Below, one piece after another: positions 5,456-12,362 of a stretch of DNA of 64,000 nt. The DNA lies in NCBI GenBank assembly GCA_965237675.1, contig OZ250150.1, forward strand, positions 1,152,001 to 1,216,000. Direction: 5' to 3'. The DNA comes from Candidatus Latescibacterota bacterium (GTDB taxonomy: Bacteria > Latescibacterota > UBA2968 > GCA-2709665). The notes below the pieces were generated by a model. That model saw nothing but the letters and a program-made list of their open reading frames with translations, had not been told where the DNA came from and made no database searches. Positions within the stretch are counted from its first letter, which is position 1. The number at the start of each line of letters is the position of its first letter. The position numbers and the translations under genes are program-made.

Positions 5456-6607
5456 TTACCAGTCGGCACGCAAAGAGCGCCTCAATTCGTCGTACCTTTT
5501 CGCTTCCCACGCCTGATAGTCTTCTGGTGCACGCCAGAATTCCTGCCATGCCGAGTTCAGGAGACCCACGATTGGCGTCAACGCGCCTGGCTTTGCTGTC
5601 ACCACACCGGTCCCTTCGACTCCTTCTTTTGTCGCCGAGACGACTTTCGATAGCAACTCTTCGGGGTAACACTGACGGTATTCGGGCTCTACTTTGTAGC
5701 CCATTATCTCAACGAAATCCCGCCAGGCCGTATCGATCCGCTCCACTTCCCCACCGAAGCCGTTCGCCGTCAGCATCGACAGCATCGCACGCATACGTGC
5801 ATCGTCTGCCGGGTGCGTTGATACAAACTTCAGAGGAGTCTCGAAGGGATCACCACCGCGTTTTACACATAGGTGATAATGAGACCAGGCAAAGGCCGGT
5901 CCTGTTGTCAGCACACCGAAGAGGTCACAGAAAAACTCTTCCATCCAGTATTTCGTCCACGAAGTTTCCCACAAACGTAGTTGATAGACCTTTCCCTTCG
6001 GCTTGTTTATGCGTTCGGCGGCTGTGATTTCACCTCTAAAGTACTCTACCATGTGAAACAGGTTTCGCTTGTAGGCCGCATGGTATGATACAAGAGCCGG
6101 AAGATCTAGTTTCTGCTTGTAATGAAACGGATGGCAAAGTTCGTGATAAATATCTGGGAGATGAAGCAGAAACCGGCTCTCGATTAAAGGCAAACAGAGA
6201 AGATTAAAGTCCCGATAAATATGAAAATAGCCCTGAGAGATATGGCTAACGACTGGGCGAATCAGAGGATACATTATCTCGCCGCAAACATCCGTAATCA
6301 GGCGGTTAAGGAACTCATCGTCTCGACTCACCCGGCTGAGGGCGAATGCGCCGACGTTTTCAACATTGTTGAGTTGACTTACAATGCGTTTAAATTCTCT
6401 CACTCGCCGGGGTGTCTGTAACGCCGTATCGACAATCGTCTCCGCGGACAATCGTTGTAGAGAAGCCTGCGACTCGTTGAGTTGTTTCAAACAGATCTTC
6501 CGCAATCTGTCATATTCGCACGGGTATTTCCCCTGTACGATTTGGCGTAACTGACGCGCCCGCTCGAGTGATTGGTCAATGGACCCGGTCAAGTACTTCT
6601 CGACCAT
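5456..6607 (-). CDS. Argonaute-operon protein with zincin-type metalloprotease motifs (M48/Lit-like)
   Basis: HELCH (HExxH), downstream EEFFCD and THPADDARM; ATG overlaps the upstream stop (TGATG). Confidence 0.7.
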   Translation of the reverse strand: MVEKYLTGSIDQSLERARQLRQIVQGKYPCEYDRLRKICLKQLNESQASLQRLSAETIVDTALQTPRRVREFKRIVSQLNNVENVGAFALSRVSRDDEFLNRLITDVCGEIMYPLIRPVVSHISQGYFHIYRDFNLLCLPLIESRFLLHLPDIYHELCHPFHYKQKLDLPALVSYHAAYKRNLFHMVEYFRGEITAAERINKPKGKVYQLRLWETSWTKYWMEEFFCDLFGVLTTGPAFAWSHYHLCVKRGGDPFETPLKFVSTHPADDARMRAMLSMLTANGFGGEVERIDTAWRDFVEIMGYKVEPEYRQCYPEELLSKVVSATKEGVEGTGVVTAKPGALTPIVGLLNSAWQEFWRAPEDYQAWEAKRYDELRRSLRADW

Positions 6608-6972
6608 CAATGCCCCCGAATTCGCCGGGCAATGTCCGCCCGTTCCTGTTCCAGTCTCTGAGCAAGGCTTTCTAACTTTTCGTGATAGCTAATATCAACC
6701 TGGCCATTGAGTAGACACTTGCCAAGCGCTTTCAGGCCGACGAAGGGGTCGCCGGTGTTTGACCGAAGCAAGCTGTCCAGGGTCAGCGCTTCAACGGATT
6801 GGGATTTGAGACCCTGATCGCTGGCATCGACAAGAAGCTGACCGAGTTTCAACTGATCTGGATCCGGCGAAAAAGTTCCGCCCTCTTCAAGGCGTTCAAT
6901 TACCCTGTCTATCAAGCTGCCATATTCCTCCACATCGGCGTAAACCCCCCTCAGCAAACTCAAATCACTCAT
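6607..6972 (-). CDS. Small alpha-helical hypothetical protein in the Argonaute operon
   Basis: 121-aa ORF with an ATGA overlap with the Argonaute stop and an overlap with the next gene. Confidence 0.75.
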   Translation of the reverse strand: MSDLSLLRGVYADVEEYGSLIDRVIERLEEGGTFSPDPDQLKLGQLLVDASDQGLKSQSVEALTLDSLLRSNTGDPFVGLKALGKCLLNGQVDISYHEKLESLAQRLEQERADIARRIRGH

Positions 6973-11967: not shown

Positions 11968-12326
11968 TAACGCCTCCGCCTCCGAGATCGGATGAACTGA
12001 AGGTATTCCACAAGTGCTTCTTCTTCTTCCACGGTAACGGTTCCAATGCGAGCAGCAAAGCTGGATAAAGAAGACTGACCCTCGGCCGATCGATCTTTTG
12101 GCACGGGATAACCGGCCAATTTCATCAATAGTTCGTAGGGTACACGATAGAGTTCGGCGAGTTTGTACAAATTCTGCGGGGCCGGCGTCTTTATCTTGCC
12201 GTGTTCCAACTGGCTTAAATAGGCGTTCGAGATCCCAGTCTTTGCCTCGACAGCCCGGAGCGTCAACTCGAGCTTGTTTCGCGCCGATGCAAGAAAGGTT
12301 CCCAGTTTTTCTTCTGACCGTTCCAT
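11967..12326 (-). CDS. XRE-family helix-turn-helix transcriptional regulator
   Basis: LTLRAVEAKTGISNAYLSQLEHGK HTH; stop overlaps the nuclease ATG (TAATG). Confidence 0.9.
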   Translation of the reverse strand: MERSEEKLGTFLASARNKLELTLRAVEAKTGISNAYLSQLEHGKIKTPAPQNLYKLAELYRVPYELLMKLAGYPVPKDRSAEGQSSLSSFAARIGTVTVEEEEALVEYLQFIRSRRRRR

Positions 12327-12362
12327 ATTGCTAAATATATTTAATGTTGCTAAGTTTGTCAA
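12327..12362 (-). promoter_or_regulatory. Sigma70-type promoter for a probably leaderless transcript of the Argonaute operon, with TTAGCAA direct repeats
   Basis: TTGACA (12362-12357), 17 bp, TATATT (12339-12334), 7 bp, ATG (12326); repeats at 12328-12334 and 12347-12353. Confidence 0.75.

Follow-up and report, generated by a model that had tools for sequence, protein, structure and literature searches.

The window analysed here is a stretch of 64,000 nucleotides from a Candidatus Latescibacterota bacterium (contig OZ250150.1, assembly GCA_965237675.1), and our subject is a cassette of five genes within it that is arranged around a long prokaryotic Argonaute (pAgo, the protein itself being abbreviated Ago). 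The five genes overlap one another between positions 5456 and 12362, all on the minus strand, and the open reading frames (ORFs) listed for them correspond to an XRE-family regulator (11967-12362), a Cas4-like nuclease (11080-11967), the Ago (6969-9467), a small protein (6607-6972) and a protein with an HExxH motif (5456-6610). The features as we interpret them are given below from the promoter end onwards, with HTH denoting helix-turn-helix and IS an insertion sequence.

12329-12365, minus strand: promoter and operator, with -35, -10, palindrome and a second half-site
11967-12326, minus strand: XRE-family HTH regulator, 119 aa from the likely start ATG at 12326; HTH, variable linker and conserved C-terminal motif
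11122-11967, minus strand: Cas4-family PD-(D/E)XK nuclease, first 282 codons; N-terminal Cys, D...DWK and QxxxY
9430-11118 (9427-11121 with duplications), plus strand: IS1380-family IS; transposase at 9510-10874; TAG target duplications on both sides
9334-9429, minus strand: displaced 3′ part of the nuclease gene; CxxCx5C in 31 codons, then a TGA stop
6969-9344, minus strand: long pAgo of the PliAgo group, 791 aa; match to PDB 7r8f and to PADLOC pAgo_II; intact DEDD
6607-6972, minus strand: small helical protein, 121 aa; conserved N-terminus MSDxGL and conserved C-terminal helix
5456-6610, minus strand: HExxH protein, 383/384 aa; three-helix bundle (residues 1-94), gluzincin-like catalytic domain and C-terminal helical domain

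The stop codon of the XRE gene and the ATG of the nuclease gene are joined as TAATG at 11967, those of the Ago and small-protein genes as ATGA at 6969-6972, and those of the small-protein and HExxH genes as TGATG at 6607. The remaining junction becomes apparent once the IS is removed, the nuclease TGA at 9334-9336 then giving an 11-nt overlap with the Ago ATG at 9344. Without the IS the cassette is 49.5% GC, compared with 57.2% for the window and 57.3% and 56.4% for its flanks. A preliminary description of this DNA had reported five same-strand genes with overlapping junctions, the hidden overlap of nuclease and Ago, a block more AT-rich than its surroundings and one promoter in front, and the coordinates, junction letters, base composition and promoter sequence agree with it on every one of these points; the promoter is TTGACA-17-TATATT at 12362-12334, with 11 of 12 consensus matches. 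We have little doubt that the five genes form a horizontally mobile, self-regulated PliAgo-type Argonaute cassette and that its parts are correctly identified.

The Ago matches PDB 7r8f in a phmmer comparison (E value 4.8e-208, 696 bits, query residues 1-785 on chain residues 1-784), a structure in the series 7r8f-7r8k that we take to be PliAgo, the passages of the PliAgo paper giving no PDB code. Its catalytic tetrad consists of D564 (7653-7655), E593 (7566-7568), D627 (7464-7466) and D763 (7056-7058); these are the residues named in the preliminary description, and they are invariant in all 14 aligned Agos and in all 73 distinct full-length Agos. The nuclease matches Pfam PDDEXK_1 (1.3e-5), with zero phmmer matches to solved chains at E ≤ 1, and at 313 aa it has the Cas4 hallmarks of D-DxK, QxxxY and 1+3 cysteines, with C14, D179, D193-W-K195, Q207, Y211, C297, C300 and C306 conserved among 33 intact homologs; the copy in the window has the same motifs, split by the IS. 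PADLOC already contains models for both proteins, the Ago matching pAgo_II over its full length (1025.6 bits) and the nuclease matching Aga_Cas4-like_Nuc (372.9 bits).

The preliminary description had proposed an undescribed Argonaute system, and this does not hold, as the Ago belongs to the PliAgo group, a group defined among other traits by DNA-guided RNA cleavage and an unconventional metal-free MID pocket, and the operon family is published. In the passages of the PliAgo paper considered here (Lisitskaya et al. 2022, Nat Commun, PMC9360449) PliAgo is described, with crystal structures, as a DNA-guided RNA-cleaving (D-R) pAgo, and the related operons as constant in composition, with a PD-(D/E)XK nuclease distantly related to Cas4 preceding the Ago; an HTH regulator is found in a first group and a sigma-70 family factor in a second, what D-R pAgos do in nature is called an open question, and pAgos of the PliAgo type are under development as programmable RNA-cutting tools. 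The cassette in the window thus shares with the PliAgo group its full-length Ago similarity, DEDD tetrad, upstream Cas4-like nuclease and HTH regulator, and differs from those operons in being interrupted by an IS. The same passages name only the nuclease and the regulator, with no function given to the two downstream genes. The assumption of DNA interference in the preliminary description also needs revision, since the characterised relative cleaves RNA with DNA guides. A look-up of terms in the text of the MbpAgo paper (PMC13346755) found no mention of an operon or accessory genes.

The window cassette also resembles the APACE systems, which likewise pair a catalytically active long pAgo with a Cas4-family enzyme having D-DxK and 1+3 cysteines; in the passages of the paper describing them (Bobadilla Ugarte et al. 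2025, Mol Cell, PMC12094033), ACE1 is an endonuclease of single-stranded DNA, processing guides and pairing with its pAgo as a heterodimer, and ACE2 has a mean length of 313 aa and an insertion of 28-41 aa relative to ACE1. The window nuclease has the ACE2 mean length, a likeness to ACE2 of length only. APACE1 systems are cyanobacterial two-gene systems with an ACE1 of about 278 aa (PMC12094033), whereas the nuclease here is of 313 aa and is accompanied by three more conserved genes, and APACE1 targets DNA whereas the characterised relative of the window Ago targets RNA (PMC12094033, PMC9360449).

Conservation of the cassette and a sister group with a sigma factor

An Ago profile run on contigs from one genome per species identified 50 loci from Latescibacterota, Nitrospirales, Proteobacteria, Planctomycetota, Cyanobacteria, Acidobacteriota, Verrucomicrobiota, Chloroflexota and archaea. 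As a reverse test we scanned metagenomes with the HExxH profile alone, which gave 448 relatives, of which 80 loci were kept. Genes were counted with profile hidden Markov models on six-frame ORFs, a locus being testable for a gene, by a rule of our own, when enough flanking DNA is present. The counts among testable loci are as follows.

Small protein: Ago-seeded loci 49/49; HExxH-seeded loci 69/69
Full HExxH: Ago-seeded loci 46/47; HExxH-seeded loci, the seed
Full Ago: Ago-seeded loci, the seed; HExxH-seeded loci 34/37
Cas4: Ago-seeded loci 40/46; HExxH-seeded loci 30/30
XRE: Ago-seeded loci 42/46; HExxH-seeded loci 28/29 (adjacent)

The gene order XRE, Cas4, Ago, small protein and HExxH protein, whose conservation had been left as a question in the preliminary description, is thus strongly conserved in many phyla and in both the genome and the metagenome collections, and the small-protein gene precedes the HExxH gene in every one of the 69 testable metagenome loci. 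On these counts we regard the protease family as essentially confined to the cassette. It comprises 1,824 cluster representatives at E ≤ 0.001, of which 302 reach ≤ 1e-30 and roughly 1,100 are weaker relatives with E between 1e-10 and 1e-3, and among the matches listed every one that its source names is called hypothetical; five records are plasmids, including Runella slithyformis pRUNSL03, and a tblastn search of the phage collection with the HExxH protein gave no match.

The exceptions include reduced forms. Cas4 is absent from four loci of Dehalococcoidia (L040, L052, L053, L054), which have the reduced order XRE, Ago, small protein and HExxH protein, as well as from L049 and the degraded L059. 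L049, from a genome flagged unpublished, has only Ago, small protein and HExxH protein, and some 100 residues are missing from the N-terminus of its Ago; the Ago of L050 is shortened in the same way, but there the contig begins at this point. The XRE gene is displaced by insertions in L024 and L034. The three HExxH-seeded loci without a full Ago are deletions. L094 retains only the Ago end, and L122 and L124 have lost the Ago and half of Cas4. In the three metagenome contigs L121, L122 and L124 no part of the Ago is left, and the XRE gene is followed by 149 residues from the start of Cas4, then by the small protein and an HExxH protein that is intact. Cas4, Ago or HExxH genes are interrupted by insertions of 0.9-5 kb in L022, L023, L024, L033 and L034, as an insertion also splits the window cassette, and multiple frameshifts are present in L045, L054, L055 and L057-L060, some of which come from long-read-only assemblies and are possibly sequencing errors. 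Frequent damage of this kind may be a sign of host cost.

The annotated plasmids extend the pattern. The conjugative Runella slithyformis plasmid pRUNSL03 has the same five genes, the last three of which are called 'hypothetical protein' in RefSeq, and its pAgo is presumably among those studied in the PliAgo paper. In this plasmid (L151) and in a plasmid of Spirosoma oryzicola (L152) the neighbours of the cassette are two paired genes, one for a multiubiquitin-domain protein and one for a ThiF adenylyltransferase, with a DUF6527 gene added on the Runella plasmid; this ubiquitin-like cluster of defence type next to the cassette on both plasmids gives it a defence-island setting.

A probable counterpart of the second group is a related set of loci that we found by sampling 401 genomes of the class of L050 with PADLOC PDLC02383. 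Five genomes matched, three of them strongly (783-1069 bits), and these three (L147-L149) have the order extracytoplasmic function (ECF)-type sigma factor, a protein of about 200 aa, Cas4-like nuclease, Ago, small protein and HExxH protein. The sigma factors match Sigma70_r4_2 at 4.1e-8 to 1.6e-9, the small proteins are recognised at E values from 1e-6 to 2e-4, and the HExxH proteins at 6.5e-59 to 7.7e-70. The annotated Spirosoma oryzicola plasmid has the same six genes. We refer to these loci as PnyAgo-type, a label derived from the PDLC02383 scores and the sigma context, and they fit the second group as it is described in the passages of PMC9360449. The protein of about 200 aa occupies the place usual for anti-sigma factors. 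Since the nuclease, Ago, small protein and protease are constant in both groups, the transcription-factor module appears to be exchangeable.

The control region of the first group is also conserved. In the window, TGCTTGACA, which includes the -35 hexamer at 12362-12357, forms an imperfect palindrome with TTAGCA at 12353-12348, and the -10 hexamer TATATT (12339-12334) is followed by a second TTAGCA half-site (12334-12329) directly before an ATG. We rejected the TTG at 12362 as the start of the XRE gene, since it belongs to the -35 hexamer; the likely start is the ATG at 12326, and because this is about 7 nt past the -10 the mRNA is probably leaderless. Nearly all loci, across phyla, have TGCTTGACA-N3-5-T(C/T)AAGCA upstream of the XRE gene, containing a consensus -35; this operator is often a perfect palindrome (TGCTTGAcatATCAAGCA) and is followed by a -10, a TTAGCA-like half-site and an ATG about 7 nt on. 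GCTTGAY is found at most 130 nt upstream in 68 of 75 loci, where it overlaps the -35. The conserved promoter and operator are a possible portable regulatory part. The regulator itself matches Pfam HTH_19 (5.7e-12) and HTH_3 (6.5e-12) and PADLOC HTH_VI (1.4e-8) and capH (9.6e-7), and an alignment of 30 sequences reveals the conserved C-terminal motif ARxGxVTxxEExALxEYLxFLRSRxR. Cleavable repressors such as CapH and ImmR are likewise built from an HTH domain, a linker and a conserved C-terminus.

The HExxH protein and its predicted small partner

Residues H156, E157, H160, E225, C228 and D229 of the HExxH protein are invariant in 24 diverse sequences; the H-E-H-E-D set is present in all 108 distinct copies and the cysteine in 106 of them. 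The spacing from the HExxH motif to E225 is 65 residues. The protein gives a confident AlphaFold2 model with our own alignment (predicted local distance difference test, pLDDT, 95.0), and since VIA-align searches with the full model are dominated by the N-terminal three-helix bundle and are uninformative for the catalytic part, we folded residues 95-384 alone (pLDDT 94.9). The best match in an exhaustive VIA-align search with this domain is BepA (6sar), with a root-mean-square deviation of 4.1 over 142 aligned residues and a Z of 8.3, which is only at the level that the tool itself treats as a meaningful match. Next come Zmp1 (Z 7.6), PepO (7.6 and 7.4), ZMPSTE24 (7.4), neprilysin (7.3) and 3c37 (7.1), followed by ECE-1 (7.0), Ste24p (6.5), the minigluzincins jannalysin and abylysin (5.2-5.3) and PprI/IrrE (8sln, 4.4).

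Each of the 13 chains at Z ≥ 5 is a metallopeptidase entry or resembles one, and the 65-residue spacing between HExxH and glutamate fits the M48 type; on these grounds we read the modelled protein as a divergent, soluble gluzincin. It shares with M48-type gluzincins and minigluzincins, its best structural neighbours, the HExxH motif and the glutamate 65 residues downstream, and differs from the M48-type enzymes in lacking a sequence-level match to them (9-13% identity in the structural alignments) and in being soluble and having two parts that those enzymes lack, a three-helix bundle at the N-terminus and a helical domain at the C-terminus. No Pfam match to a Peptidase_M78 / COG2856 domain was found in the protein. 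The named ESM Atlas clusters offered for it (Peptidase_U49 and M48) were set aside, as their scores of 0.78-0.79 are at chance level; the Atlas clusters are otherwise unnamed. Some members of the family are extended by a C-terminal caspase-like CHAT domain with its His and Cys motifs (P0248, 4.3e-9; P0268, 2.4e-4, which is below the Pfam cut-off). A further member of 799 aa (P0283) contains a second HExxH-like motif.

The small protein has an invariant M1 and, in at least 90% of the aligned sequences, S2, with the consensus MSDxGL. An Hpt-like lead for it in the ESM Atlas was dropped, its best score of 0.82 being at chance level. Models of the complex between the protease and the small protein reach ipSAE values of 0.90, 0.89 and 0.89 in three runs, compared with 0.00 for the best of three controls; in calibration 58 of the 80 solved complexes and 2 of the 110 mismatched pairs attained the mark used, counts that hold only roughly here because our own alignments were used. 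At least 94% of contacts are common to the runs and the partner pLDDT is at least 86. In the model, residues 1-10 of the small protein contact protease residues 127-134, 153, 156-157, 160, 224-225 and 228, which form the catalytic cleft, and its other helices lie against the N-terminal bundle and helices 180-221. The model supports binding of the small protein by the protease without demonstrating it, and an N-terminus bound in the cleft would look like a bound substrate, a product or a pseudo-substrate inhibitor; we therefore regard the small protein as the predicted partner of the protease and possibly as a pseudo-substrate.

A connection of the small protein with the Ago is suggested by gene fusions. 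Ago and small protein are encoded in one stop-free frame in L032 and in the metagenome loci L130, L131, L132 and L138, representing at least two lineages, and by the Rosetta-stone argument these sequences hint at the C-terminus of the Ago as the place where the small protein acts.

A possible link between RNA recognition and proteolysis

Taken with the exchange of transcription factors between the two groups, these observations are hints that RNA sensing by the Ago is wired to protein cutting, and we suggest the following sequence of events. The XRE repressor would bind the palindromic operator over its own promoter and so hold the cassette under autorepression. Small DNA guides are probably made or trimmed by the Cas4-family iron-sulphur (Fe-S) nuclease, in the manner of ACE1 in the APACE1 systems, and with these guides the DEDD-active pAgo would recognise RNA and cleave it, an activity that PliAgo has in vitro. 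The zinc metalloprotease would be held by the N-terminus of the small protein lying in its catalytic cleft, with the small protein also tied to the C-terminus of the Ago, so that recognition of a target RNA could shift or release the small protein and free the protease. The freed protease might then cut the XRE repressor or, in the sister group, the partner of about 200 aa of the ECF sigma factor, which would lead to a burst of transcription; host proteins might be cleaved too. An Argonaute-coupled protease mechanism of this general kind, analogous to Craspase, is the reading we prefer, at slightly under an even chance; that the complete chain ends at a cleaved component of the transcription factor, whether XRE or the sigma partner, is on balance doubtful. 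The preliminary description had linked slicing to a proteolytic effector or a proteolytic de-repression switch; the complex model, the fusions, the operator and the sigma sister group speak in favour of such a link. Gene content, its conservation, the conserved catalytic sites and operator, the fusions and the IS boundaries are shown by the sequences, and the biochemistry, at every step of the circuit, is what we infer.

Craspase is the type III-E effector Cas7-11 with the CHAT protease Csx29, Csx30, Csx31 and RpoE, and CalpL-CalpT-CalpS is comparable. The logic is the same, in that a guided RNA sensor is combined with a protease, a small partner or substrate and an ECF sigma or other transcription factor; the sister group has an ECF sigma factor with a partner, and some family members are fused to CHAT. 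The sensors are not homologous, being an Argonaute here and a Cas protein in Craspase, and the protease is an HExxH zinc enzyme here as against a caspase-like or Lon-like one; activation by target binding is proposed for the cassette, which is known from genes and models. The pairs ImmR/ImmA, DdrO/IrrE and CapH/CapP likewise occur in defence or mobile settings and combine an XRE HTH repressor bearing a C-terminal extension with an HExxH metallopeptidase; unlike in these pairs, the XRE and protease genes of the window are not adjacent, the protease has a small partner of its own, and it is not of the M78/IrrE family by Pfam and resembles it only weakly by fold.

Several observations weigh against the Argonaute-coupled reading. 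Since PliAgo by itself slices RNA in vitro, slicing does not require the accessory genes, and the contigs L121, L122 and L124 retain XRE, small protein and protease, so that this pair may work without the Ago. L049 has neither XRE nor Cas4, so XRE cannot be the only substrate, and the resemblance of the sigma partner of about 200 aa to XRE is weak (hhalign probability 14%, E 0.0019). The complex model, besides its rough calibration, cannot tell a substrate from an inhibitor, and the fusions, which block the free N-terminus of the small protein, argue against an inhibitor that needs a free amino terminus. The assignment of the protease is also open to criticism: its VIA-align Z values are modest, Foldseek found nothing in the PDB at E ≤ 0.001 with either the full or the domain model, and for the HExxH protein and the small protein there is no Pfam, PADLOC, NCBIfam or PHROGs family at E ≤ 0.01 and no curated peptidase.

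An alternative is a switch independent of the Ago, similar to ImmA/ImmR, IrrE/DdrO or CapP/CapH, in which a protease sensing stress (single-stranded DNA or DNA damage) cleaves XRE and merely turns on an ordinary pAgo-plus-nuclease system, the small protein being an inhibitor or adaptor. The capH match of XRE, its HTH, linker and conserved C-terminus typical of cleavable repressors, the conserved operator over the promoter and the Ago-less contigs with XRE, small protein and protease are all in accord with such a switch, as is, weakly, the presence of PprI/IrrE among the fold matches. It is nonetheless rather unlikely, in that the protease has no match to Peptidase_M78 or any other Pfam family and its best fold neighbours are of M48/M13 type and not IrrE, and in that its gene lies at the end of the operon opposite XRE, is translationally coupled to that of a small protein which in five loci is fused to the Ago, persists in L049 with Ago and small protein and no XRE, and in 130 loci is never found beside XRE without cassette remnants.

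The protease might instead be an effector of abortive infection, a Lit-like toxic enzyme that cuts essential host proteins and is kept latent by an antitoxin-like small protein, with XRE or the sigma factor only setting expression. Latency is what a tight predicted complex with an N-terminus in the cleft would provide, and a costly system would fit the frequent inactivation of the cassette by insertions and frameshifts; the CHAT fusions and the other defence genes beside the cassette on the Runella and Spirosoma plasmids are also compatible with it, and the nearest named Atlas clusters are Peptidase_U49 (20-23% of members) or M48, at the chance-level scores given above. We give this explanation a small chance, since nothing points to a host target, several of the frameshifted loci are long-read-only and may reflect sequencing errors, and a constant dedicated transcription factor whose type is swapped between groups fits a signalling output better. 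Very improbable in our view is a housekeeping role, in which protease and small protein serve the maturation or turnover of Ago or nuclease, or the unloading of guides, for instance through the processing of a joint precursor of Ago and small protein, with no part in signalling or effector function. Translational coupling of all the genes would accord with it, and the Ago-small protein fusions would lead a peptide through the cleft which, in the model, is occupied by the N-terminus of the small protein; yet Ago and small protein are separately encoded in most loci, PliAgo is active without processing in the passages of PMC9360449, and the swap of transcription factors is left unexplained.

Returning to the Argonaute-coupled reading, the invariant protease and partner genes, the cleft model and Ago fusions, and the exchange of XRE for an ECF sigma factor turn the role of D-R pAgos into that of a testable circuit of sensor, protease and transcription factor. 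If correct, which we consider doubtful, this would be the first Argonaute-coupled protease signalling system and the Argonaute counterpart of Craspase, the plugging small protein being attached to the Ago C-terminus either in cis or in trans; with comparable reserve, it would convert RNA detection into a transcriptional or abortive response and so supply the biological function of D-R pAgos. A circuit of this type would further imply independent evolution of the protease design of type III CRISPR, and would offer a proteolytic output that RNA could trigger through DNA guides. Our literature searches, which did not cover figures and supplements, found no paper linking PliAgo-type operons to a protease or sigma factor; what we did not find in print is the interpretation of the two downstream genes as a zinc protease and a cleft-binding partner, the conserved operator and the shared core of the two groups. 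The two genes may already be depicted or listed in Fig. 1b and Supplementary Fig. 1 of PMC9360449 and in Table S2 of PMC6299218.

The IS1380-family insertion and neighbouring genes

The cassette copy in the window has been damaged by the IS. On either side of the element stands TAG, a 3-bp duplication (9427-9429 and 11119-11121), and inverted repeats lie at 9424-9442 and 11105-11123; its transposase matches the NCBIfam IS1380 model NF033539 at 383 bits (cut-off 180) and PF13701 at 521 bits. The genome contains 14 full-length copies at 100% (rounded) identity, including that in the window, and among the 50 matches listed there are additional copies at 82-98% and many short end fragments; TAG flanks 9 of 10 inspected copies and TAA the other. 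The element is highly active in the source genome, and since the assembly, reported as 99.93% complete, is also reported as 8.07% contaminated, such genome-wide copy counts require caution. In sequencing run X7, of a relative, contigs join position 9426 to 11119 and skip 1692 bases, which identifies an empty site; the insertion is present in runs X1, X3 and X4.

The nuclease gene is interrupted after codon 282, as 11122-11967 is exactly 282 codons, and the frame resumes at 9429 for 31 codons, for which tblastn gives 39-77% identity with related loci at this position. The nuclease in the source genome is therefore without its three C-terminal (Fe-S) cysteines, and the element, 83 nt upstream of the Ago start, parts the promoter from the Ago, small-protein and protease genes. 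With the nuclease disrupted and three genes cut off from their promoter, this copy is probably at least partly dead or crippled, and for the source genome alone it is of modest interest.

A DUF123 gene (4832-5455, minus strand, Pfam 1.4e-15) abuts the HExxH stop codon with zero spacer. We rejected it as a sixth member of the cassette, since it is present in none of the 50 related loci (tblastn) and its 59.3% GC is host-like; the accident of insertion may have led to its co-transcription here. A gene for a small DUF433 protein (12531-12773, minus strand, 2.6e-25) lies immediately upstream of the cassette, with a near-consensus promoter-like site of its own at 12834-12807, and nearby an ankyrin-repeat protein is encoded at 12883-13689 (minus strand). 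A further neighbour is a STAND-like NTPase of 933 aa with AAA_16 and TPR domains (16146-18947, minus strand), which could be another defence gene.

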